IMG/VR virus record: IMGVR_UViG_3300021400_000028
Location: 106,250-170,249 of that record
Direction: 5' to 3' (one strand)
DNA: 64,000 nt
Origin: a virus
Taxonomy: Duplodnaviria; Heunggongvirae; Uroviricota; Caudoviricetes
Under the pieces are notes generated by a model. It had not been told where the DNA came from. It was given only the letters and a program-made list of their open reading frames with translations, and searched no databases. The translations under genes and the position numbers were made by a program. Each line of letters opens with the position of its first letter. The stretch's first letter is position 1. Shown here one piece after another: positions 2,879-62,842 of the stretch.

Positions 2879-3763
2879 TTAAAAGTTTCCATAATAAGTT
2901 TGACAACACAAAAGACCTAATTTATCACGCCACATTTTGCAAACTTTATCTCGATCATCAAATACTACTCTAACATCGTGATTTGGTTCAATATATTTAT
3001 GATACATTTCTTCTTTAACAATTTCATCAGGTCTATGATCACCAGCTTCTCGCATATATAGTTCAAAGTATCCTCCAAAATTATCTTCTATCCACGTTTT
3101 AGTCTTTTGCTCACAATTTCCAATCTTTTCTCGTCCAGATAAGAAGATAATTTTATATTCTCGTTGATACAAATCCCAAAGAAGTGAAAACAATCTGTCT
3201 TCTGGTAAATCGGTATCACATTTCTCATAATCATACGGATTTCTACCTTGTCTCATTGAAACAGTACCATCAATATCACAAAGTACTGTTTGTAGCTTTG
3301 TTCTATCAATTGGTTTTCTGAAACGAAGATCCCAATTTTTATCATCGAGTAATTCAGGCTTATATTTTGCATAAAAATCACGAATTACTTTAAATCCTAC
3401 AGGACGTTTACGAGTATTGTTAGAATCTCTTTTAATTGCTTCAGAAAAAGGTAGCCAGAAGTCTTTATATTCTATTTCACAATTATATTCATCTGCAAGA
3501 GCTTCCCATTTTGCAATTGTTTTTGGATTGCAATTAGTAGCATCAATAATGACATTCCATCCATCGTTTACTGCAGAAATAATACTATCACGTTCTATTT
3601 TAGAAACAAGATTTTCTCTTTCTGGAACCCAATATTCACCTAAAGACTCACGAATCGAATCACGGCAAACAATTACCCAATGATTATTTTCAGAAATAAA
3701 TTTGCGAGCAAATGTAGTTTTTCCACTCGCTTGAGGTCCCTGTAATACTAATATTTTACTCAT
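2879..3763 (-). CDS. pnk: polynucleotide 5'-kinase/3'-phosphatase (T4 Pnk-like)
   Basis: N-terminal P-loop GPQASGKTT; C-terminal HAD phosphatase motif DIDGTVS; domain order as in T4 Pnk. Confidence 0.8.
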   Translation of the reverse strand: MSKILVLQGPQASGKTTFARKFISENNHWVIVCRDSIRESLGEYWVPERENLVSKIERDSIISAVNDGWNVIIDATNCNPKTIAKWEALADEYNCEIEYKDFWLPFSEAIKRDSNNTRKRPVGFKVIRDFYAKYKPELLDDKNWDLRFRKPIDRTKLQTVLCDIDGTVSMRQGRNPYDYEKCDTDLPEDRLFSLLWDLYQREYKIIFLSGREKIGNCEQKTKTWIEDNFGGYFELYMREAGDHRPDEIVKEEMYHKYIEPNHDVRVVFDDRDKVCKMWRDKLGLLCCQTYYGNF

Positions 3764-9561: not shown

Positions 9562-10098
9562 AAATAAATCAGTTCTATCATAATATGAACCAGCGTAAGC
9601 ACTCAACTTATTCATTATCCTGCCATTCATATAAAATCTTTGATTGGTATTGGGATTGTTTATAGGTCCAAATTCTGATTTATATGGCCCAATTTTTATA
9701 TAATCAATTTCTGGCATATCAACAGGTATTTTGTCTCGACCTGTATACCAAGCTACTTTTATGTTTTTAAACAATAAAGGACAAAAACGAAAAAGATTAT
9801 ACAGTTCCTCTAAATCAGAATCTCCGCCCATAAAACAAATACAAGTAATTCCTTTATTTTCTGCAACTAAATCGCACAATTTACCTACTCGAAGTGGAGT
9901 TCCTATATCTTTCCATAATTCTTTTGAATGACATTCTGGACAATGATAAGGACAATTAGTTAAATTAATACACAAAGAGATTTCGTCAGGCACTTCTGAG
10001 AAAGTAACCATTGTATTAAGATATTTTAACATCGTTTTCTTTAGTATATGTTCTACCCTTTTGTTCAACCTGTCTTTCTTTGGATCAATTGTCAACAC
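9538..10098 (-). CDS. nrdG: anaerobic ribonucleotide reductase activating protein (radical SAM)
   Basis: Cx3Cx2C cluster CPYHCPEC; lies immediately downstream of nrdD. Confidence 0.75.
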   Translation of the reverse strand: MLTIDPKKDRLNKRVEHILKKTMLKYLNTMVTFSEVPDEISLCINLTNCPYHCPECHSKELWKDIGTPLRVGKLCDLVAENKGITCICFMGGDSDLEELYNLFRFCPLLFKNIKVAWYTGRDKIPVDMPEIDYIKIGPYKSEFGPINNPNTNQRFYMNGRIMNKLSAYAGSYYDRTDLFWKNDTDS

Positions 10099-12190
10099 AA
10101 GTCAAATATCCAATAATTCTTGTCCAATATTTTATATGTTTTGAACCACAATGCGGACATTCTGTTATTGGAGCATTCACTGTATGGTGACAATCCGCAC
10201 ATTCGCTCATAGGAATATTAAATGTGAAGTAATTTGTGCCATTATCTTTAGCAATATCTAGAATTTTAAGATACTGCTCCTTAGAAAGATGCGCATCTAA
10301 ATTGATGTGTGCAGCCTGACCACCGTCTGTAAACTGTGTTATTTCTTTTCCGTGCAATTTTAGTTTATCGAGAACATTAGTATTGTCCCAAGGATTGTAA
10401 AAATAGCAATTATACAAATTTTGATCCTCTGGAACATAATAACCATCCTCTTTATCCCACTGATACAACTTTACAGCCAAATTTTCTCCTGGAATAGCCT
10501 CACTGTTGAAAAGAATTGGTCTTTTCTTATCATGAATTGAGTTCTTTTTATTCTCGTCACGAACAGTGCCAAAAATAGTAGACAAAAAGTGTTTATATTC
10601 CTCATTGTTACCGACTGTTAATCCTAAGAATTTTGCAGCTTCTGAATATCCAATTAAACCAATTGTACTATATAATTTTCGCATATAAATATAACCTGCA
10701 TTTGATGCTGTAAACATTCCTTTGTCTTCAACATCATATAACATTGTTTTGTAAGCAATTTGATATTTATAAACGCGAGAAAGTATATTCTTTAAATATT
10801 CTGGAAATTCCTTATAAAATCTATTAATGTAATCATTAAATGCGTTTGGTTCTGTCTTTGTTTCATTAAATCAATTTTGAATAATTCTATTAAGATTTAA
10901 CGTGATTACATTACAACTACCTGTCATTACACCAGTCATTCCTGTAGTAGAACTAAAGGTATTTTCTGAAATTTCGTTCAAGACTCTACAACATGATGCT
11001 AAACTTGTTGGATTGTCACTATTAAAGCAAAAGAAACTACCACCCTTTGCCCATTCATCTGCACATAGATTTTTATAATCCAAATCAAGATATTCTTTAT
11101 TATTATGAACCAATGCCATTGTAGATACTGGGAATGTAAGAGGTTTAATAAGTCTAAGTTCACGATGGAGTTCCATAAACATTCTTTGAAGAACATCTAT
11201 TGCTTTTCATTCAGGTTTTGTTCCATCTGGATAATAGAAGTCTTCAAATAATGACTTAAAATAAATAGAATCGTAATAAGAAACATTAGAGAATGGAGAA
11301 TTAAAAGATCTGTTGCCAGCTGGTTGATTTACTCCGTAAATAAACTGCTTCATCCCTTTTCTAATGTAATATTTTACATCATGTGGTTCTTCTGTTCCAG
11401 TTGTTACTATTTCGTCCAATCTATTATATCATTCTGCACCAAATTCCTTAATTACATAATAATTTAAAGCAATAAAATAATCACCGACAGCAACAGCGCC
11501 TTTACATTGAGAACTAAGTAAAAATATTAAATTAGTAATCTGTCCACTAAATGATGCAATATCATTCGGCGCACTTGGTGTTACTCCATCTATATTTCCA
11601 ACTCCATCAACCATTAAAGGATATAATGTTACTGCGCAACAATAATATTTTAAAACAGGAGTTGATGCTTCATCGTGTGTATAAATTATATGATTGTCCA
11701 AATCCTTTACGTATTGTTTTGCCACTTCTGGAAACATTTCGTAAAGTTTTTTCTTCATTCGTGCTCTTTGAATTAGTCTATTTCTGGTTTTATAAACCTC
11801 ACCTTCTAGATTTGCTACATTTTTAATAGTAACGTTTGAATTAGCATCTGTTTCAGAAGCAGTAGCAGCATTTGTACCAGAATTAGTATAATTATCCATA
11901 TAATCAATACGCTCTTGTACAAATCTAGATTCTGAATGTTCCTCTTTATATTTTATATAAGCTATTTGAACATCATAATACTTAAATTCACCAAGAGAAT
12001 AAATAATGAACTTTTGAATATCTTCAACAGTTTTATTATCTTCAAACGTTTCAGATGTTGCTTTTAGATAATCTATAAATTCTTCAGGAGCATCCGTTTT
12101 ATATACTGCGTTAAATGCTTTATTTACAGCATTTTTTATCTTATTAAAATCAAATTCTTCTAAATTTCCGTTACGCTTGATTATTTGCAT
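10085..12190 (-). CDS. nrdD: anaerobic ribonucleoside-triphosphate reductase, class III (3 in-frame TGA)
   Basis: Four track ORFs in one frame (10085..10744, 10871..11182, 11207..11419, 11429..12190) are separated only by TGA at 10871, 11207 and 11429. N-terminal ATP-cone MQIIKRNGNLEEFDFNKI; C-terminal Zn ribbon CADCHH...CPHCG and glycyl-radical motif TRIIGYL. Confidence 0.85.
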
Positions 12191-19005: not shown

Positions 19006-19413
19006 TATTAATTTATAAAACATTTTCTTGTCCATAATTACAGCTTCACCAACAGTAACTATATTTGTTTCACGAGGTTCTTGTTTTGCTCAAATAATAC
19101 AAAATTCCTCAGGATTTACAGTAGATTCTTCTCTTATTTTAAAGTAAGATGGGATGGACTGTGTTTTTTTAAGTTGGATCTTTACAGGAAGCTTATTACC
19201 CTTATCTATTAAGTCAACTTTATTATTATCAACCGATTTTGATTCACTACGAGCTGTAACTACGTTATTGAAACCAAGTTCACGTAATTCTTTAGCTATT
19301 TTAACTTCATAAGCATTTCCTTTATTTTTAGAATATGCAGCACTACGTTTCTTCTTCGGTTTCGATTGTTTCTCAGAGACATCCGAATTCTTCTTTTGCT
19401 CACTTTTCTTCAT
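19006..19413 (-). CDS. Holliday-junction resolvase, archaeal Hjc-like (1 in-frame TGA at 19090)
   Basis: KGNAYEVKIAKELRELGFNNVVTARSESKSVDNNKVDLID matches the Hjc pattern KGxxxERxLxxxLxxxGF...DLIA; ends at TAG just before the next start. Confidence 0.55.
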
Positions 19414-20404
19414 AATACTCTTTTATTTTATTGATTAATTCTATCGTTCTTTTTTTACCATGTTGTTTAAAAAAATCCGATATATCTTTATCATCACCGT
19501 GTATTGGAAGAAAAGAAAATTCCAATTCAGGATATCTCTTTTTAAGTTTGGACATTGCGTGAATACCTGGCAAATCATTATCGTAATTTACAATTATATG
19601 ATTGTATTTTGTTTTTATACGATTATATTGAGCGTCTGTTAAAAATTCATTTTCAGAACATGGTGCAATTGCAGGAATTCCAAGCTCATACAAGACCATT
19701 ACATCTTTTAATGATTTTGTAATAACTATATAATTACCTCCATTTTTTGAAAGCATGTGTGCCCCTTGAATTAATGTAGATTTTCAATTAGATACAAATT
19801 TATACTTCTTTCTACCAGGCATATAAATTCGCCACAATTCTTGATTATCTTTTATACCTCCAAAATAACCATACGCCTTTTGTAAATCGTTATCAATATA
19901 AAAGATATTTCCATTTAATCATACGGTTTTACAAGCAAACACCTTGAATTTTTTCAAAGTGTCTGCTGTAATTCCATATTTACCTCACCAAGTCAAATCT
20001 TTGTCATTAAAATCTCTAATCTCTACACGAATGTTGGCTGAGCCTTGTTCTTCGATTTTATTTCCAGAATATTTTAGCTTAGGTTTGTTTTTGGTGAGAT
20101 TTGGTCTTGATATTAGATTAAAATCATTAGCGATTATAACTAAAGACATGTAATAACTCACTTGAAACAACTCTTGTACATATGCAAAACAATCTCTGTG
20201 ACTTCCATCACCAAAATCATGTACAATAAGACGTCCTTTCTTATTACGATATAAACTACAGGTTGGATTGCGATCGTTTCGTAATTTGGAACAAAACAAT
20301 CCTTTCTTTATAGGAACACCATAATGTTCAAGAATTTCTTCTTCTGAAAGTTTACTTAAAATCAAAGATTTTGTTACTTCTATTGGTTCAAGCGAATATT
20401 CCAT
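19400..20404 (-). CDS. DnaG-like DNA primase (zinc-binding domain plus TOPRIM; 3 in-frame TGA)
   Basis: Track ORFs 19985..20404 (Zn-binding: NPTCSLY...HDFGDGSHRDCFAYV) and 19400..19756 (TOPRIM: VNYDNDLPG) are in the same frame. The region between was hand-translated and is open apart from TGA. Confidence 0.7.
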
Positions 20405-24337: not shown

Positions 24338-25522
24338 TTAAAATCTAAATTTTGTATTTATGATATTTTCTCTTTCTCTTGTTTCAATAGTTTCTCCATT
24401 TAATACCTTTTCAAGTTGCTCTTCGTTAATCGTAATAACTTTAGAAGTATTAGAATTTTGAAACCATTGATATTCTTGAGTTCCACGTAGAATTAAAGTA
24501 AAAATTTCTGCAATTTTACCTTCTTCAAAACGTATTGCTCTGCCAACTGTTTGAACCTTTTTAATTTTGGAAGAATCTGTATTTAATATAACTTCTAGAT
24601 TAACTCCGTGTAAATCCAATCCAGTATTACATGCTTTAGACGAATGTAATACACCAGATTCTGCATTATTAAAAGCCTCAATTATTTCAGCATTCTCTTT
24701 TTGTTTTTGTTTAGAATGAACGACATAACCAAATCCAAAAGATTCTGCCTGTTTAATTGTTGCAGAAAAGGTCATTGCTTTGCTATTTGGTCTTGCTTCA
24801 AGTATTTTCTTTGCAATTTCAAGTTTTTTTGGATGATTTTGAATAAACATTTTTCTGTCACGCATTGCCTTGTTTCATTTTTGTGCAACGCCCATAGTTG
24901 TTTTAGAATCCATCCCATGCTTTTTGGCATAAATGTTACAAAACTTTTTATCAGTTGCACAAGACATTGCATCACTAAAAACAAATCCAAAATAAGCAAA
25001 ACATTGATTAAATATTCTTGTTTTTTCAAGATATTCTGTTAAATCAACATCCAATAATACACAATACTCTCTATGTGGAGCAACTCATCCATTTTGTTCA
25101 GCTTCTATTATTGTGATTTCATCACATACTGGAGCAAATTTCTGAATATATGTTTCTTTACCATCCAAACGTTCGAATGTTCCAGTCAATCCAAGAATAT
25201 TGTTGTAATTAACGCATTCAAACACTTTACGGAAAGTGTCGGATGGAGTTAGGTGTATTTCATCGATTATAAGCAAATCACATGTTCAGTTTAGTTTTAC
25301 AACAGAATTGATTACTTCTACACGAGCGTTTTGTAATAATTGACGTTCTTCTAATTGATCGATTCATTGATCCTTTAGAATTTTAGTTGGAACCACAATT
25401 AATATACTTGCTTCTTCATTTCGTCTAACAAAAGCATCAGTTAAATTAAGTCCTACACGAGTTTTACCTACCCGAATCCGGTACAAGCTACAATAGTTGC
25501 TGCTCCACCGGATTCTAATCAT
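24338..25522 (-). CDS. SF2 DEAH-type helicase (several in-frame TGA)
   Basis: Motif I RVGKT, Ia ILIVVPTKILKDQW, II IIDEIH, III LGLTGT, V SSKACNTGLD, VI QTVGRAIR across same-frame track fragments 24338..24865 and 25085..25276. Confidence 0.7.
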
Positions 25523-25556: not shown

Positions 25557-27458
25557 TTACCATAGTGATAATTGCTTTTTATCCATTTTTTCAATTATTT
25601 TATATGCTTCTTGAACATAATATTGATAATTGATACATCTTTTATTGATAGGAATCTCATCAAATTTGTTATAAATTGTAACTGGGGATGCTGCACATAA
25701 AGCAACAGGACTACCTATTTTTTCTCCATTTATAACTTTTTGTTTAACCAGCATTTTACCGTTTGTAGACATATAATATCTGTTTATATGTGCTACTTTT
25801 TCTCCACCATAAAAAACCGTAAATTCTTTTGCTACTTTTTGAAAAGTACAAAACTTTTTAATATCGTTACAAGAACGAATAGTATCTTCTGGACTAATAC
25901 CTTCTACAAAGTATTTATTAAGAGCTTCTGGTATAATTAATGGAGCCAAACCCTTTCCTAAAATTGGTTCTTGAATAAACAATCCTTTTGTTTTAATAAG
26001 TTTTGGATCATGTGACTCACTTCAACCTTTCTTTACTCCTATATAATCATTAACTGCATACTGATAAAATCTTTCAAACGTATCCTCTTCCAATCCAATC
26101 TTAGTAACACCTTCTCACCATTTACAAATGTCTAAAAGTTTTTGATAATCTTTGTTATCATGTAAAACAAATATGCCATCTGTATTAGTATTAATAATTC
26201 TAGCGCCAGCTTCAACAAATGCTTCAGCTAACATAAGAATTATTAATTGGCCATTAATTCTTAATGTAAGAACGGATTCTGGAGAATATACTCAAGAATA
26301 TGGAGATTGAAGATTTCCAGTTAAACCATTTAATGCAAGTTTTAGAGTTTCATTTTTAACTTTATCGCCATTCTTTTTAGCGATAACTCTTTCCTCTCTA
26401 ATACTGCGATACACATCAAGAAACTCTGGACCTAAATGTTTTGGATATAAACCTCACTCAATAATGATACTAGGATACATACTTGTAACATCTCAATCTC
26501 TTAAAGATTGATCTGGTCCAGGTTCAAAGATTTCAGGAGAATTAACTGAATGCATTCCTCCAAGAGAAAAGTTATGTTCAACACCACCAAGTTCAAAAGA
26601 AATATGAAACTTATTTTCTTTCTTTTTCTTTGCTTCTTTCTCGAGATCTATAGTAGTGTTCTTAACTTGCTCGAAGAAATCTTGCATCTTTTTGGTTTTG
26701 AATTGAATACAAGGGAAAATAATATCTTTAAATGATATTACATTGCAAGGACTTCGTAAATCTTTAATCTGAAATCATTGTAATCCTGTTGCTTCAAGAT
26801 ACTTCTTTTTCAGAATTTCCATTCCAAGATTTACACCATCTTTATTTAATGCCGATATGTGATATTCATCTTCAATAGCCAATCTAAGTTCTATGTCTTT
26901 TTTAGATCTATTTAGAAGCTCTTCGGTTGAATCAATATCATTATTATTATAATTTTTTACATTTGGAATTTCATCCTTTGGTAAAGTTGAATCGAAATCA
27001 CCATCGTATTCTTCTACATTTGAATATTCCATTGTTACTTGAAGCGCTTTTAAACTAGGACGAAGCTTTTGAGACCATCGCATTGCTAATAAATCTAAAT
27101 CATCATATAAATTTGCATATTTATATTGACTTCAAGAAGCGGATGTTTCAGATGTAATGATTTTATCACTAAATCGTTTAAGTTCAGATGTAATTTCTCA
27201 ATAAGGTAATAGAATTAATCGCTTATAATTAATAATAATGTAAGAGATTAATACTTTATCATAATGGATTGTATTATATCCGCAAAAAAATATACGTTTA
27301 TTAAGAAACAACTTAACTATTTCTGGCATATCGTTTCTTATCTCGGATATTTGATAAAACCTTCTATTACCAGATTCAGTATTTTTTACAGCAATACTAA
27401 AGAAATTTGGAAAAGATTCAACATCATAAACAAATACAGGTTTATTTCTTATCAGCAT
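25557..27458 (-). CDS. family B DNA polymerase with N-terminal 3'-5' exonuclease domain (>=6 in-frame TGA; 1-2 apparent frameshifts)
   Basis: Exo I VYDVESF and Exo II GYNTIHYD in 27198..27458. PolB motif A DVTSMYPSII, motif B-like KLALNGLTGNL and motif C-like NTNTDGIFV found by hand translation between 26100 and 26500. Track pieces 27198.., 26775.., 26493.. and 25557.. share a frame, but continuity near 26280 needs a +1 shift at a GGG run. Confidence 0.55.
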
Positions 27459-35699: not shown

Positions 35700-36105
35700 G
35701 ATAAATTGATTATATTTATTAAATACATAGCACCCTATCTCCGTGTCGAGCAGAGTTCTTCGGTTTTGCTTACTTATCTCTTGTATTTATACTTTTTGAT
35801 AAGCTTGGACTATATCTTCACCGTATCATTATGACTTAGGTGGATCTGCATCTAGTCTCTACGGCTGGAACATTACTCCCTATGCCTCGGTGTTGTTGTT
35901 TATACAGTTTTCACCGATATTCAGATCTCCACTTTATAAATTTCTTTATAAAGGCTCCATTTTAAACTATAAATCTAGCTAAAGACCGAGGTTTTAGCCA
36001 TCGTAAACTAATAGGGTGTATATTATATTATTTGTGGTATATTTCAATGAAAGGATTCTATTTTAAGCAGATATAGTGAATTGCTGTAAATTTATTGTTA
36101 TATAA
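35700..36105 (-). ncRNA. group I intron-like RNA element (host gene unresolved)
   Basis: Non-coding ~400 nt, GC-richer. Minus strand carries an R-like CCGTAGAGACTAGATG and an S-like GGTGAAGATATAGTCCAAGC (Cech consensus S is AAGATATAGTCC), homologous to the intron in tRNA-Leu. 3' side ends at hairpin 35677-35700. Confidence 0.45.
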
Positions 36106-36181
36106 AATTAGAGATTGGATTCGAACCAATGTTATGCGGAAGACTTAACTTCCGGTAACTTAACCACTCAGTCACTCTAAT
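36106..36181 (-). tRNA. tRNA-like gene, atypical anticodon arm (6-bp stem CGGAAG/CTTCCG with 6-nt loop TTAAGT, or 5 bp with 8-nt loop)
   Basis: Perfect 7-bp acceptor ATTAGAG/CTCTAAT, D-loop GAGTGGTTA, T-arm ATTGG TTCGAAT CCAAT; the anticodon cannot be assigned canonically. Confidence 0.45.
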
Positions 36182-36209
36182 TTTATATAACAAATATACA
36201 AAAAATATT

Positions 36210-39105: not shown

Positions 39106-39158
39106 AATAAATTAGGTTTTAAAGTTAATAAATAAAATAGCGCTTCAGTCACATTGAG

Positions 39159-39235
39159 TAGGGAAGGTGGGATTTGAACCCACGTGCAACCAGCTACGGT
39201 TTCGACACTTTATAAGAGTGAGCCGATACTTCCCT
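39159..39235 (-). tRNA. tRNA-like gene with non-canonical D/anticodon region
   Basis: Perfect acceptor AGGGAAG/CTTCCCT and T-arm GTGGG TTCAAAT CCCAC, but the 45 nt between cannot be folded into standard D and anticodon arms. Confidence 0.35.
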
Positions 39236-40051: not shown

Positions 40052-40123
40052 GAGGCTCTGCCGGATCCCGAGACCGGTACTAGGGGTTACAAATCCCTTA
40101 TTTTGCCTGTTAAACTACAGAGC
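40052..40123 (-). tRNA. tRNA-Thr(TGT), atypical T-loop
   Basis: Acceptor GGCTCTG/CAGAGCC, anticodon loop TTTGTAA, T-arm CCGG TCTCGGGAT CCGG is non-canonical. Confidence 0.5.
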
Positions 40124-40149
40124 CATCGTTTTTAAATAAATAAATGCAG

Positions 40150-49081: not shown

Positions 49082-50221
49082 TTATAATTTAATTAAATTT
49101 GATTCTGGACTATAATTTTCATAAATGTCTTTAAAATTTAAACAAATATGTTCGGCAATAAATTTACCAATTCCTCTTAAAGACACATTCAAATGACATT
49201 CGTCTTTATTAACAAATGGAATAATTGGATTATTGTATTTATCTCTCTTTACACAATCACAATGTGTGACAACGAGATTGTAATCAACATCGTAATTATC
49301 CAAACAGTGTCTTTGAATGCCATTATTAATAATATCAAAATCTAAAATACCTTTTTTAAATCGACCTTGATACTCATTGTCTTTATTTGCTTCAAAAACA
49401 TCATAATTTATATTATTTAGATATTGTCTTGGCTCATATCCAGAACCATGTCTTGTCATATATGTTCTTGTTACAAGAAATACTTTCGGTTTATCATAAA
49501 TATCTTCAAAGAAGAAGAACGGATCTTTTAAATATGATTCATTGTGTGGAAATATTTCACAAGGAGTTATGTATGGCTTAAATCCACGATCTCCATCTAA
49601 CAACAAACCTTGAGCAGATTCAAAAATATACGTATCAAACTGCATTAAATTTGTTGGATACCAAACATGTTCTTTGACAAAATTAAAACAACGTAAAAAT
49701 TCTTCTTCTAATTCTTTATTTACAGACAAAGAATTCACTTTACGTGATTTATTGAGAATTTCAACTGGATCGTAATCTAAATAAAGCATCTGTTTAAATG
49801 CCCACCAAATTCCACATCCACATGTACCATTTTTAATAGATTCATCATCATTCTTATTAGCGATAACATGATATGGTGAAATAACAGTACAATCTGAACT
49901 AACATAAAATTCTGGAGTAATACCTTTTTGCGCTAGAACATCATATTCTGCTTTAAGTGCAATAGGATCTATAAGAGTCTGTTCATTTAAAGGATAAATA
50001 TATGTTGGAACTCCTAAAAGTGTACCAGAACCAAAAGATGAAAATGTATGCCAAATATTATTATGAACTACTGTGTGTCCGGCTTGTGGACCACTACAAT
50101 ATCTAATTACAAGAGGTTTTTCACCTCTTTTAATTGCTTCTTGACATAGATATTGTGTTGTAACTCCCTTACCTTCATCCCCAAAGTTCATTCCTACAAC
50201 GTATTGTATCTTCTTTTTCAT
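49082..50221 (-). CDS. adenylosuccinate synthetase homologue, short form (PurA/PurZ-like)
   Basis: 379 aa. P-loop NFGDEGKGVTT; SGPQAGHTV (PurA GGHNAGHT); FESAQGLLLDGDRGFKPYITP (PurA [21 protein letters not shown]). Shorter than bacterial PurA, as archaeal and PurZ enzymes are. Confidence 0.7.
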   Translation of the reverse strand: MKKKIQYVVGMNFGDEGKGVTTQYLCQEAIKRGEKPLVIRYCSGPQAGHTVVHNNIWHTFSSFGSGTLLGVPTYIYPLNEQTLIDPIALKAEYDVLAQKGITPEFYVSSDCTVISPYHVIANKNDDESIKNGTCGCGIWWAFKQMLYLDYDPVEILNKSRKVNSLSVNKELEEEFLRCFNFVKEHVWYPTNLMQFDTYIFESAQGLLLDGDRGFKPYITPCEIFPHNESYLKDPFFFFEDIYDKPKVFLVTRTYMTRHGSGYEPRQYLNNINYDVFEANKDNEYQGRFKKGILDFDIINNGIQRHCLDNYDVDYNLVVTHCDCVKRDKYNNPIIPFVNKDECHLNVSLRGIGKFIAEHICLNFKDIYENYSPESNLIKL

Positions 50222-52795: not shown

Positions 52796-53899
52796 TTAGG
52801 CTAATAGTTTCAGTACACCCTGAAGGTATTCTCCAATCTCCACCAGAGCACTATTGTCTTTGAACTCGTCAAACTCCCCACGACATAAGGATTGACTGAT
52901 ATGAAATGTGTTATACTTGTAGTTCTCAGGAGAACAAAAGAACATGCAGAGCTTACTGAGGTGCTCGTTGATATCTTTCTTCGTTGTCGGAAGAAAAATT
53001 TTCCACTTCGTTTCTCTGCGTTCTATTTCTTCGTCGGATGCGGAGTTGGAGACAAGAGTCCACAGCAATTTCGAGGCGACCTTTTCGTTGATTTTGTCAA
53101 TGCGTTTTTTCAAAAGGGTTTCGTATTCCTCTTTCGTGATGTCCACCATCTTGCCGTTTCTTTCAGTCTGGTAGATATTGATGTCCACCTTCTTTCCGTC
53201 GGGCGTAATGAGATACAGGATACCCCTTGTGTCAAAGTCTCCGTTTCTCTTGTCGGAAAGAAAGGACTGCGCATAAATAACGTACTTGCCTTTCTCCGGT
53301 GAATATGGCATCTTGATAGGGAACATCTCGTCAAGAAATCCCGTCCACGAGCAATATGTATCAGAAGGGTCCTCAATGTTAACATAGTATGCCCTATCGT
53401 TATCATAATAGGTCACTTTGCCGTCAAGGGTTTCGTCCCGGAATAGTGAAAACATACGTGTGCATTGTAGTGACGACTTAAGACCGCGATTCATGAGGCT
53501 CTCTTCCGATTCGTATGATTCATTTCCGTTAGCGAAGAAATCCTCGTCCGTAATCGGCGTCAGCGGCTGACCGTTCATAAGCCTGATAAGGATGTTTTTG
53601 GTAAATCCGAAACTTGCGCCGGAGTGATCGTCGTTCATAAGGCTCTTATAAGCCTTCAAGGCGGACTTGTAGCAGGAACAACCATAGTCCCAGGCGTTCG
53701 GGTCATCGAAGTTGAAATTCGGGTTTTCTTTTTTGCAGGCAATTCTACACTCTTGCTCTGCCCATTCATACATTCTCATAGTTATATCTCCTTTTCTTTC
53801 TCTTTTAGGCTTTCGCCGGGTAGAACTTCTTGTGTCCATCAGCTGTGAGTTGAGGCACCATATCCCCATACATTTCACGGAGATCGAAGCCAAACTCAT
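52796..53899 (-). CDS. hypothetical protein (GC-richer module; real start probably at internal MRMYEWAEQE)
   Basis: 367-aa uninterrupted ORF, no TGA. Confidence 0.4.
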   Translation of the reverse strand: MSLASISVKCMGIWCLNSQLMDTRSSTRRKPKRERKGDITMRMYEWAEQECRIACKKENPNFNFDDPNAWDYGCSCYKSALKAYKSLMNDDHSGASFGFTKNILIRLMNGQPLTPITDEDFFANGNESYESEESLMNRGLKSSLQCTRMFSLFRDETLDGKVTYYDNDRAYYVNIEDPSDTYCSWTGFLDEMFPIKMPYSPEKGKYVIYAQSFLSDKRNGDFDTRGILYLITPDGKKVDINIYQTERNGKMVDITKEEYETLLKKRIDKINEKVASKLLWTLVSNSASDEEIERRETKWKIFLPTTKKDINEHLSKLCMFFCSPENYKYNTFHISQSLCRGEFDEFKDNSALVEIGEYLQGVLKLLA

Positions 53900-61042: not shown

Positions 61043-61686
61043 ATATTATTCTTCCTTTCTTACATTACAGCCTAATCAGATCTGCTGCCTCTTTTAGTTT
61101 GTGAAAATCGTAGAGTGCTATTGAAGCATCTGTATATGATTGTATCTGTTTCCATTTATGAAACCAGTTTTTTCGAACATAAATTGCAAAGGTGCCAGGT
61201 CTATCAAGTCTGTAATTATTTGCTTTACAATCTTCTGAAAAGTCTATTTTAACTTGCATAATTAGTCTTTCTTTCTTATATTAAAACTTAATATAGTTTT
61301 TATATTTACTTCCGCAGCATTTTGCATATAACAATCAGTATGAAGCATCAGCTGTCCATCGTGGTTTAATAAGTAATGAACTGGAGCATTAACGTCTCCA
61401 ATTCCAACACATATCTTTACATCATCAGGAATATGTTTAAGATATAATTTTAATTGAGCTACGGTTAACTGAGGACCTTTGTCGTAATCCATATTTATTT
61501 CTACTTTCTTTTATTCATTATACATTAATTATAGCATTTCTGAACGTTCATTGTATTTCTTTTTAGCATATTTGATTGCTTCTGAAACATCTTCATATTT
61601 AGTAATAATTGGAATATTCACCCAACTTACGTGATCAACTATTAATTTTAAAACTTTTATTCATAATTTGACTTCATTTGTTTTAG

Positions 61687-62411
61687 TAGCCCCGGCCGGA
61701 GTCGAACCGGCACGACCATTTCTGGTCGAGGGATTTTCGTACCACTATAGTTTTCACTACCAAAGTCTTATTCACAGTATCATAGCAAATAGCTTCTCTG
61801 CTCCTAAGTATTTAAAATAAGTAACTTGTTTGTGGTCTGGACTCTATCTTAACCATATTGAAATCTTGCAAGATTATAACGACTCATTCCAAAGATTACT
61901 CACGGTTGACTCTTTTCGCCAGTTATAAATTTCAACTTAGGTTCCTCCTGTAGTAGTCTCTACACACTGTCTAATAGATTACATTAACGATAAACGTTTC
62001 AATTAAGTTCACTTATTAGGAACTGTTCTATCAGTGACATTGGCTCGGTATTAGCATATATTATAACTCTCAGCAATCACCTGATACTTTAAGGGTTTAC
62101 CCGTCTGTACAATTACTTGTCATCGACACGCTACAGTACTTAGCTTTCACCGAATTAGGGAGGTTCTACATCTAAAGTTTCCTTTAGTGCACTCAAATTA
62201 TACTTTAAGTAGAGAAATATCGTAGGTTGCGTACCTTATTACGTTGGACTTTCACCAACATCCTACCTAGCTCATCATTCGTCAATGAAGTATTGCGATA
62301 TTTCTCCCATATGAACATATAGTCAAGTTGCGAACTTGAATAAATGCGCTATATATTCACATGTTTAGTAACGTTAAAGTCCCTTGTGTCTACCTATTCC
62401 ACCACGAGGCC
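61687..62411 (-). tRNA. tRNA-Leu(TAA) gene interrupted by a group I intron in the anticodon loop (5' exon 62377..62411, intron 61738..62376, 3' exon 61687..61737)
   Basis: 5' exon GGCCTCG TG GTG GAATAGGTAGA CAC A AGGGA CTT. 3' exon AAAA TCCCT CGACCAGAAATGGTCG T GCCGG TTCGACT CCGGC CGGGGCT A. Joined they give anticodon loop CTTAAAA, a type II variable arm and Leu-type D-arm. The intron starts after U34, ends in G, and carries an R-like GTAGAGACTAC and S-like AAGATAGAGTCC. Confidence 0.7.
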
Positions 62412-62455
62412 ATATAATAATATTAATACATATTTGTTATTCTATTTTATTAAAT

Positions 62456-62842
62456 TTAAATCAAATTTTCAAGACAGTATTTAATTGCTGCCTCACAAGC
62501 TTCTTCATAAGAATTATAGAACTTGCAATCGCCACCTTCATTTGCAAATCTATCAAGACGAGAAACATTGAAGTGGTAATGATTTGCAATTACGGCTTCT
62601 TCATCTTGAACATCTTGGTTTAAAACAACCTCTATATGAAGTTTATGTTCTTTTCTCAACCACTTTCTTGCCATTTGGAGGGTTGGAGCATCAAGGTATT
62701 TTTCAGGATGTCTTGCCCTATCAGTTATGTTATAATCACCAACAATTTTATCGCTGTTAAATTGTTTATCCGTACTATCATTAAAACCCTTTTCTTTCAA
62801 GAGTTTGGCTGTTTCAAAACTTACATAATCCTCAGTGATCAT
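62456..62842 (-). CDS. paralogue-family protein B2
   Basis: 128 aa; paralogue of 59106..59498. Confidence 0.4.
   Translation of the reverse strand: MITEDYVSFETAKLLKEKGFNDSTDKQFNSDKIVGDYNITDRARHPEKYLDAPTLQMARKWLRKEHKLHIEVVLNQDVQDEEAVIANHYHFNVSRLDRFANEGGDCKFYNSYEEACEAAIKYCLENLI

Follow-up and report, generated by a model that had tools for sequence, protein, structure and literature searches.

The tRNA-Leu(UAA) gene is a classical host of group I introns, which interrupt it at position 34/35 of the transfer RNA (tRNA) in cyanobacteria and plastids and are also found there in other bacteria (Williams 2020; PMC13011429). For phages, a review published in 2014 stated that all introns observed to date lay in protein-coding genes, despite the many tRNA genes that phages carry (PMC3984707). 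Here we describe a tRNA-Leu(UAA) gene from a tailed phage (Caudoviricetes; IMG/VR record IMGVR_UViG_3300021400_000028, positions 106,250 to 170,249); this whole stretch of 64,000 nucleotides (nt) was analysed and is referred to as the window. The gene is very probably interrupted between U34 and A35 by a group I intron that contains no open reading frame (ORF) of note. Both the class of ribozyme and the insertion site are known; what is new is the host gene, a phage tRNA, together with an unusual architecture that is ORF-less and yet extended.

The cyanobacterial tRNA-Leu(UAA) intron is roughly 250 nt long. Like the window intron, the cyanobacterial and plastid intron (of the Anabaena/Nostoc PCC 7120 type) resides in tRNA-Leu(UAA) at the 34/35 site (CUU/intron/AAAA), and the two are also alike in having U(-1), a terminal guanosine (omega-G), a short P1/P10 in the anticodon loop, no ORF and a core of the tRNA-intron type. 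The window intron differs in residing in a phage and in measuring 639 nt, about three times the typical length of a tRNA intron, with five peripheral insertions that include a module of ~170 nt in the loop of P1 (L1). The shared insertion site does not show shared ancestry: the phage family retargets many tRNAs by a change of guide (see below), and the site may therefore be convergent.

In a survey of bacteria, group I introns in tRNAs were found in anticodon loops only, and those longer than 500 nt all held endonuclease genes (PMC13011429); tRNA-Leu(UAA) introns with an HNH gene, from Bacteroidota, are among the bacterial introns surveyed (Williams 2020; PMC13011429). These bacterial introns resemble the phage family in occurring in many isotypes, in their anticodon-loop sites, in being mostly of group IC and in being missed by standard tRNA finders (Williams 2020; PMC13011429). 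The surveys cover bacterial genomes only, whereas the window intron is phage-borne and, at 639 nt, nevertheless ORF-less.

Classical phage introns are mostly of subgroup IA2, and many carry homing endonuclease genes. The introns of T4 (td, nrdB and sunY), Twort, crAss-like and Jug phages are likewise group I introns in phage genomes, but their hosts are protein genes. Jug and crAss-like gut phages carry many group I introns (PMC12880540, PMC7886860); tRNA is not mentioned in the Jug phage paper, and the crAss-like phage paper does mention it, but its intron passages considered here concern protein-coding genes only. Unclassified, ‘enigmatic’ tRNA introns have been reported in Lak phages, where they were found using the eukaryote mode of tRNAscan and where phage tRNA introns were called previously unreported; for Lak-B a single intron is listed, in a tRNA-Tyr (Devoto et al. 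2019). These Lak introns likewise lie in tRNA genes of gut megaphages, and in Lak-B1 the tRNA-Leu(UAA) carries a homologue of the window intron at the same site. A full-text literature search, which leaves many subscription papers outside its coverage, turned up no earlier account of phage tRNAs that carry group I introns.

A split tRNA-Leu(UAA) gene

The two halves of the gene lie on the minus strand (Table 1). An earlier note on this DNA, made from the letters alone, had placed them about 640 nt apart, and the exact coordinates agree with this, leaving an insert of 639 nt. When joined in silico, the exons were identified by ARAGORN as a tRNA-Leu(taa) of 86 nt whose acceptor stem has 7 base pairs (bp) and whose D stem has 3 bp, with CUUAAAA as its anticodon loop and a variable arm that is long; this is the type II tRNA-Leu with anticodon UAA that had been claimed; CCA is not encoded at the 3′ exon. 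The insert begins after U34 and ends in G (boundary CUU/...G/AAAA, with slashes marking splice junctions here and below), as the earlier note had read it, and its position is indeed that of the cyanobacterial and plastid tRNA-Leu(UAA) intron, U34/A35 with CUU/intron/AAAA (Williams 2020; PMC13011429). The split gene was missed in scans of the window both by ARAGORN at its default settings and by the Rfam tRNA model. In its intron mode ARAGORN offered an alternative, a tRNA-Ser(tga) with an intron at position 37 and a boundary 2 nt away; this solution breaks the U(-1)/omega-G rule of group I boundaries as well as the leucine identity, and it was rejected because of its violation of the boundary rules.

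The description of the intron as ORF-less also holds. The longest ORF within it spans 37 amino acids (aa; translation table 11), none reaches 60 aa, and the longest stop-free stretch is 52 aa when TGA is taken as sense; an intron-encoded homing endonuclease ORF was not found in either of these two scans of the window intron. Overall, we are highly confident that this phage tRNA-Leu(UAA) gene holds a group I intron.

The group I core and its guide

The R- and S-like motifs that the earlier note had pointed to are present (GTAGAGACTAC, 61963..61953, and AAGATAGAGTCC, 61850..61839) and correspond to the two strands of P7 together with J8/7. The Rfam group I intron model, RF00028, matches 61822..62209 on the minus strand with 29.2 bits and an E value of 2.4e-5, and the match takes in all 253 model positions (1-253); it was obtained in a scan with 4227 Rfam families that was restricted to 61600..62500 (901 nt). 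In the alignment to the model, the conserved segments J3/4-P4 (AAUUCGGUGAAAGC), P4′-P6 (ACCGAGCCAA), J6/7-P7 (GUAGAGACUA) and J8/7-P7′ (AAGAUAGAGUCC) can be recognized, interrupted by insertions in P5 (~60 nt) and P6 (73 nt versus 34) and by a longer P8. Given this E value and the homologous split tRNA-Leu genes found on dozens of phage contigs, the signal of an intron and a split gene is more than chance.

The splice sites are matched by an internal guide just 5′ of P2. Its GAG pairs with C32U33U34 to form P1, in which U34-G is a wobble, and its UUU pairs with A35A36A37 to form P10, the guide UUUGAG being the exact complement of the ligated exons CUU/AAA; P1 and P10 can thus be formed with the proposed exon ends. 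Splicing would follow the standard chemistry of group I introns. The pre-tRNA would be transcribed together with the co-oriented early genes, the guide would pair with C32U33U34, and an external guanosine bound in P7 would attack after U34. With A35-A37 held by the UUU of the guide, omega-G would then replace the cofactor and the exons would be ligated to give the mature tRNA. We infer that the window copy splices in this way, unaided by protein. The mature tRNA would read UUA and, by wobble, UUG, together about half of the leucine codons of the phage; the usage in the long ORFs of the window (UUA 33.5%, UUG 14%) makes a tRNA with a UAA anticodon plausibly useful to it.

The helices P2 to P9 were drawn from the window sequence (Table 1), and the structure was tested on an alignment, A1, in which five anchor-defined core segments from 29 distinct introns of the family were joined with linkers. 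The tested structure comprised P2, P3, P4, P5, P7, P8, the P8 palindrome, P9, P9a and P9b; the P6a pairs and alternative P7 registers stand outside the formal test, as the alignment is ambiguous there. Across the 57 pairs of 12 helices in the 29 introns, standard pairs occupied 92.8% of the cells, compared with 34-42% when the 3′ partners were slid by 1-3 columns. Changes on both sides were seen in 28 of the 57 pairs, and none of 500 shuffles reached any of the observed measures; kinship alone can beat shuffles without structure, and the pair-count measures, which are also extreme, are the more trustworthy. Compensatory changes are abundant in P2, P3, P5, P9a and P9b. P4, P7 and P8 are almost invariant, and hence give little information on covariation. 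In the P9 domain, helices 10-12 are paired in 100%, 91.7% and 99.3% of cells, with many double changes. The two outcomes that the earlier note had named as refuting the intron, the lack of a group I covariance-model match and an inability to form P1/P10 with the proposed exon ends, were not observed, although the model match scores below the gathering threshold.

The length of 639 nt is accounted for by structured insertions in L1 (~170 nt), P5 (80 nt), P6a (50 nt), P8 (56 nt) and P9a (59 nt). Compared with shuffled sequences, the intron as a whole has a better fold (z -3.2); P2, P4/P5, the L1 domains and the 5′ half of P3 all appear in the fold of minimum energy. IC3 introns, a subgroup found in bacterial tRNA genes, have a compact core that lacks P2.1 and P5abc, with GAAA tetraloop-receptor contacts between L2 and P8 and between L9 and P5. 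The core architecture of the window intron looks like that of this subgroup, as in the Azoarcus and Anabaena tRNA introns: GAAA loops are present in P2 and P9b and receptor motifs in P8 and P5, yet the intron is not compact. Its core motifs are presumably nearly the same as those of the Azoarcus tRNA-Ile(CAU) IC3 intron (AAUUCGG(C/U)GAAA, CCGAGCCAA, GUGUAGAGACUA and AUAGUCC), which likewise has GAAA loops (L2 and L9) and the receptors CCUAAG/UAUGG. The family introns L149 and L155, which lie in CAU tRNAs, even have the CAU/GUG P1 of Azoarcus. The Azoarcus intron, of 205 nt, differs from the window intron in being bacterial, in its insertion site and in having no peripheral domains (PMC13168695).

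The distal element of P8 was observed always to be a perfect palindrome, namely CUUGCAAG, CUAGCUAG, GUUGCAAC, CUCGCGAG or CUUGCGCAAG (columns 172-179 of A1). Its positions 3 and 6 are kept complementary by covariation, which would leave a loop of 2 nt, odd for a hairpin; the palindrome may serve pairing between molecules or be a site at the level of DNA.

A family of retargeted introns in phage tRNAs

About 90 related introns were recovered, on large phage contigs. A pattern reaching from the guide to J3/4 found 49 loci in IMG/VR, on contigs of up to 554 kilobases (kb) and mostly of at least 80 kb, and only 2 loci among 185,579 GTDB species genomes, both on contigs of metagenome-assembled genomes from Firmicutes. 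A J6/7-P7 pattern found 48 IMG/VR loci and added introns with other guides in other tRNAs. With introns allowed, ARAGORN identified most tested loci of the 49-locus pattern as split tRNA-Leu(taa) genes in tRNA arrays, with introns of 443-1109 nt. Every core element of the window intron agrees with the consensus of the family.

For each family intron, omega-G and the 5′ exon were located and the spliced tRNA was identified. At position 34/35 of tRNA-Leu(UAA) the junction CUU/AAA is accompanied by the guide UUUGAG, and at position 33/34 of the same tRNA ACU/UAA is accompanied by UUUGGGUU. The other pairs of junction and guide are CUU/AGG and CUUGAG in tRNA-Leu(UAG), CUU/GAA and UUUGAG or UUCGAG in tRNA-Ser(UGA), CUU/CUA and UAGGAG in tRNA-Arg(UCU), CUU/UUA and UAAGAG in tRNA-Lys(UUU), UUU/GGU and AUCGAA at 35/36 of tRNA-Gln(UUG), and CAU/AA and UUGUG at 36/37 of CAU tRNAs. 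The P10 part co-varies across these contexts (AAA with UUU, AGG with CUU, CUA with UAG, UUA with UAA and GGU with AUC), with a P10 mismatch in L151 and in L131. A family intron is also found in a phage primase-like protein gene, at CUU/AAA (L021, L024, L026, L041). The guide thus tracks its exon context, a pattern that functional group I introns should show if they switch targets through a change of guide, and this supports the assignment of P1 and P10 in the window intron.

A distant blastn search against GenBank phages gave matches only to Lak-B megaphages, over the 3′ exon and 17 nt of the intron end. In Lak-B1 (L001, MK250020; 1826..2568) the tRNA-Leu(UAA) gene is interrupted twice, by an intron of 309 nt in the D-loop (after GGU/AGA; guide UUUGCC; RF00028 40.5 bits, E 9e-9) and by a second intron, of 348 nt, at 34/35, and the doubly spliced product is a tRNA-Leu(taa) of 86 nt. 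As only tRNA-Tyr is listed for Lak-B, this twice-interrupted gene lies outside that list (Devoto et al. 2019).

Several further features of the family were observed. Two or three introns stand close together on several contigs (e.g. L003, L042, L044). At L044 (minus strand, ~2924..3700) the 5′ half of a tRNA-Ser(UGA) and an intron are followed by a 3′ half of tRNA-Lys type, and at L144 a Leu(UAA) 3′ half comes after a 5′ half of Arg(UCU) type; these chimeras look as if intron copies in adjacent tRNA genes had recombined. In L016 and L034 the ORF of an HNH endonuclease stops directly 5′ of the guide and no half of a tRNA lies upstream, and the 1109-nt intron of L045 has an apparent ORF in its P9 region, so that the ORF-less window intron has ORF-bearing relatives.

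The locus and its ~90 relatives suggest that the statement that phage introns occur in protein genes only (PMC3984707) fails for large gut or rumen-type phages. By changes to a guide of 6 nt, one intron family has spread into tRNAs for Leu, Ser, Arg, Lys and Gln and into CAU tRNAs. The family offers a natural series for the study of group I retargeting, and illustrates a way in which tRNA halves may become scrambled, namely by recombination between copies of the intron. Because intron-split tRNA genes are invisible to default finders, they are undercounted in the tRNA repertoires of phages, in analyses of codon compensation and in suppressor-tRNA searches; the tRNA-Leu of Lak-B and a tRNA(UCA) of the window (see below) are examples.

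The L1 module and an internal copy of the ligated exons

The structured module of ~170 nt sits in the loop of P1, between the 5′ splice site and the guide, and consists of two domains (Table 1). Domain B includes the hairpin GUUGG-UGAAAGU-CCAAC (62259..62243), the loop of which we read as T-loop-like. A search of 241 million metagenome records for the module returned 33 loci, of which four lineages are real and the rest are chance matches in coding DNA. In addition to the window, the module occurs in L165 (=L173, L179), L175 and L078 (on the same contig as L153 and L182), and all carriers found are tRNA-Leu(UAA) introns. When the four module sequences were folded together using RNAalifold, 59 pairs were obtained, 24 of them with compensatory changes.

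The module matches no Rfam family or aptamer signature in the restricted Rfam scan, nor anything else in the fetched loci. Its sole Rfam match, to group II D1-D4 (12.5 bits, E 3.9, ~35 nt), was rejected as being at chance level; an endonuclease remnant was rejected for want of an ORF signal, and a transposon-like insert because no terminal inverted repeats were seen on inspection, the only repeat being a short direct one, ACUU.

The module is followed at once by ACUUAAA, which repeats the sequence of the ligated exons within the intron; it stands 6 nt ahead of the guide and can pair with UUUGAGU as a local hairpin. In L078 the guide (AAUUGAG) and this mimic (ACUUAAUU) both differ from those of the window yet match each other. 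Copies of the 5′ strand of P1 also lie beside the guide in L003 (CUUGAA; compare L044, from which the insert is missing), L037, L051 and L007, and are absent from L008, L138 and L133. The mimic is possibly an insertion scar, a displaceable decoy, a gate or a built-in circularization site.

Clostridioides difficile has an allosteric group I ribozyme with a riboswitch for cyclic diguanosine monophosphate (c-di-GMP-II), in which a structured domain by P1 and an alternative pairing set the use of the 5′ splice site. This ribozyme is a model, by analogy only, for a speculative reading of L1 as a switch; the module of the window intron lies in the P1 loop and not upstream, and no known aptamer was detected in it.

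Weighing the alternatives

Several observations weigh against a splicing group I intron in the window gene. The RF00028 score of 29.2 bits lies below the curated gathering score of 50 bits, and RF00028 gave no match either at gathering or in an E-value scan of the whole window, across which Rfam at gathering thresholds reports tRNAs only; the large P5 and P6 insertions and the longer P8 account for the low score. P1 consists of only 3 bp plus 2 bp and is long-range, with ~170 nt separating the 5′ splice site from the guide. It is also weak, as the nearest-neighbour energy of the guide duplex is -2.9 kcal/mol with the real 5′ splice site, where a U-U mismatch follows the wobble, compared with -5.8 kcal/mol for the mimic ACUUAAA and -6.0 kcal/mol for the ligated exons. 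The mimic, only 6 nt from the guide, thus pairs better than the real site and could compete with P1 or misdirect cleavage. In the comparative test, the relatives had been fetched by patterns from the window intron, which makes the patterned segments invariant by construction, and the structure had been drawn from the window's own sequence, which gives it an advantage over the slid controls. Not every copy of the family is functional, and some look dead: the tRNA-Leu intron of L037 ends in A instead of omega-G, and the chimeric L044 and L144 join halves of different tRNAs.

The low model score, the weak P1 that is out-competed in silico by the mimic, and these dead relatives would all suit a decaying remnant, with the tRNA-Leu gene a pseudogene that yields no mature product. 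We consider this very unlikely, since the exons retain a perfect cloverleaf, the core elements all match the family consensus, and guide, U-G wobble and omega-G are intact. The conservation of the L1 module with compensatory changes in four lineages argues for ongoing selection; in addition, the tRNA serves the second most used leucine codon of the phage, and neither default ARAGORN nor the Rfam scans showed a further tRNA-Leu(UAA) in the window. That the insert is removed by another route, or not at all, is extremely improbable, be it by endonuclease and ligase acting on a bulge-helix-bulge intron, as a group II intron, or through separate use of the two halves. ARAGORN's generic intron mode can likewise accommodate the gene by placing the boundary 2 nt off, and there is the very weak D1-D4 match, but the latter is a ~35-nt hit at chance level and a bulge-helix-bulge cannot be drawn at the boundaries. 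These boundaries instead follow group I rules, with U preceding the 5′ site, G preceding the 3′ site and a guide complementary to both exons, and the entire group I core is present and co-varies.

A further possibility accepts that the intron splices and adds that the L1 module and the mimic hairpin (ACUUAAA/UUUGAGU) together make up a functional switch or a device for processing. Possibly, module and mimic gate the formation of P1 and so make maturation of the tRNA conditional; or, after ligation, the guide may be captured and omega-G may attack the internal CUU/AAA, circularizing the core and releasing the ~170-nt module as an RNA. The retention of the module in four lineages with compensatory changes in 24 of 59 pairs would fit such a device, as would the fact that mimic and guide change together (AAA/UUU for the window and for L165, AAUU/AAUU for L078), the copies of the P1 5′ strand near the guide in further relatives, and the near-equality of mimic and ligated exons in pairing energy. 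The Tetrahymena intron circularizes at guide-pairing sites. Circularization at such sites is likewise known for the group I intron of Azoarcus (PMC13168695). Against this, there are only four independent sequences; the L1 region is AU-rich, which makes alternative pairings cheap; the duplication may be a scar of the insertion of the module; two other types of L1 insert (L008/L138 and L133) have no mimic; and the module carries no Rfam or aptamer signature. On balance a device of this kind is unlikely, and a phage tRNA-Leu(UAA) gene interrupted by an ORF-less group I intron remains the preferred reading.

Table 1. Elements of the split tRNA-Leu(UAA) gene and of a second split tRNA gene, by position in the window
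Feature	Position	Strand	Description and basis
5′ exon, tRNA-Leu(UAA) positions 1-34	62411..62377	minus	35 nt; GGCCTCGTGGTGGAATAGGTAGACACAAGGGACTT; 3′ end …AAGGGACTT, ending C32 U33 U34
Intron	62376..61738	minus	639 nt; TAACG…GGTACG; first base after U34, last base omega-G (61738)
L1 module, domain A	62308..62363	minus	Long hairpin with inner hairpin; four-lineage conservation with compensatory changes, minimum-energy fold
L1 module, domain B	62211..62308	minus	11-bp closing stem round a multi-branch junction; four-lineage comparison
ACUUAAA, internal copy of ligated exons	62204..62210	minus	Follows the module; hairpin in alifold columns 174-194
Internal guide 5′-UUUGAG-3′	62197..62192	minus	Just 5′ of P2; sequence reading, co-variation of guide and exon in relatives
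P2 hairpin CUAAAG-GAAA-CUUUAG	62172..62187	minus	GAAA tetraloop L2; helix 1, double changes in 6/7 pairs
P3 5′ strand CCUCC	62159..62163	minus	Helix 2; double changes in 4/5 pairs, 96.6% paired
P3 3′ strand GGAGG	61944..61948	minus	Helix 2
P4 5′ strand CGGUG	62148..62152	minus	J3/4 CUAAUU before, J4/5 AAA after; RF00028, helix 3, 99.3% paired
P4 3′ strand UACCG	62046..62050	minus	Helix 3
P5	62054..62144	minus	Tetraloop-receptor-like GCUAAG...UAUGC; helices 4 and 5; encloses 80-nt distal extension 62138..62059
P6a extension	61971..62034	minus	CUGAUAG...CUAUUAG closing 50-nt insert; flanked by short P6 (GC/GU); stem position conserved in relatives; outside formal test
P7 5′ strand G(A)GACU	61955..61960	minus	Bulged A (R element); RF00028; helix 6, 94.5% paired, mostly invariant
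P7 3′ strand AGUCC	61839..61843	minus	S element; RF00028, helix test; preceded by J8/7 UUAAGAUA 61852..61845
P8	61853..61941	minus	11-nt GAAA receptor CCUAAG...UAUGG, 7-bp stem, 56-nt insert, palindrome CUUGCAAG 61872..61865; helices 7-9
P9 domain	61741..61836	minus	P9 ACCAC/GUGGU; P9a CAAG/CUUUG with 59-nt insert; P9b GUAGU-GAAA-ACUAU (61760..61747)
3′ exon, tRNA-Leu(UAA) A35 to discriminator A73	61737..61687	minus	51 nt; AAAATCCCT…CCGGCCGGGGCTA / …GGGGCTA
Second split tRNA	35731..36017	minus	5′ exon 36017..35982; group I intron 35981..35769, 213 nt; 3′ exon 35768..35731

A second split tRNA and the phage setting

The window holds a second split tRNA gene (Table 1). Its intron matches RF00028 with 33.1 bits (E 1.5e-6), ends in G and has a guide, ..UGGAG.., that matches CUU/CA; the spliced tRNA, of 74 nt and with a normal cloverleaf, has the anticodon UCA and would read UGA. 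In the window this gene, too, was missed by default ARAGORN and by Rfam. The phage indeed reads TGA as sense, as was found when TGA was translated as Trp in four ORFs on the minus strand (10016..12190, 19343..20404, 24338..25522 and 25557..27458). In the NrdD-like ORF, the match to Pfam NRDD runs unbroken from position 3 to 560 of 562 across three of the four in-frame TGAs, with the fourth falling between this match and that to the ATP-cone; the same behaviour is seen in a helicase (4 TGA), in a primase-like ORF (5 TGA) and in a polymerase-like ORF (8 TGA). As a consequence, ORF lists made with table 11 break these genes into pieces. TGA is probably decoded by the split tRNA(UCA).

If splicing were conditional, it would provide a new control point for phage translation and the recoding of stop codons. 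It is conceivable, if rather unlikely, that tRNA maturation in these large phages is under ribozyme control, with the L1 module and mimic gating or timing the splicing of tRNA-Leu(UAA), or directing circularization of the core and release of the module, and with the same logic applying to tRNA(UCA). Were this so, self-splicing of tRNA(UCA) would time the translation of the TGA-containing genes of the phage.

All ORFs of at least 220 aa in the window are on the minus strand, and we infer that tRNA-Leu is co-transcribed with the neighbouring genes. One promoter-like site lies ~33 nt upstream of tRNA-Leu, such matches being no commoner in the window than in shuffles, and no terminator-like site was found after the gene. 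Synteny was pursued through the upstream 128-aa gene and abandoned, as this gene belongs to a multi-copy family (77 loci) with a tRNA neighbour in none of the eight best loci examined. A megablast search with 24 kb of the window against GenBank phages gave no match, and there is no near relative among them.

Among the other products of the window are a chaperonin resembling GroEL, PcfJ-like proteins, an anti-Thoeris protein of Tad3-like type (52796..53899, minus strand; E 1.2e-19) and an adenylosuccinate-synthetase-like protein (49082..50221, minus strand; Pfam Adenylsucc_synt, E 1.4e-26), the last of which may belong to the PurZ type of enzyme, found in phages whose adenine is modified. Approximately 90 nt upstream of the split tRNA(UCA), ARAGORN reports a tRNA-like gene (36105..36182, minus strand) with a four-base anticodon (taag) in an anticodon loop of 8 nt, which has no Rfam tRNA match at gathering. 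Two other tRNA-like genes on the minus strand, 39156..39235 (34.7 bits) and 40053..40124 (39.3 bits), are seen by Rfam and not by ARAGORN, and the former also gives a weak, partial match of 24.1 bits that is transfer-messenger RNA-like.

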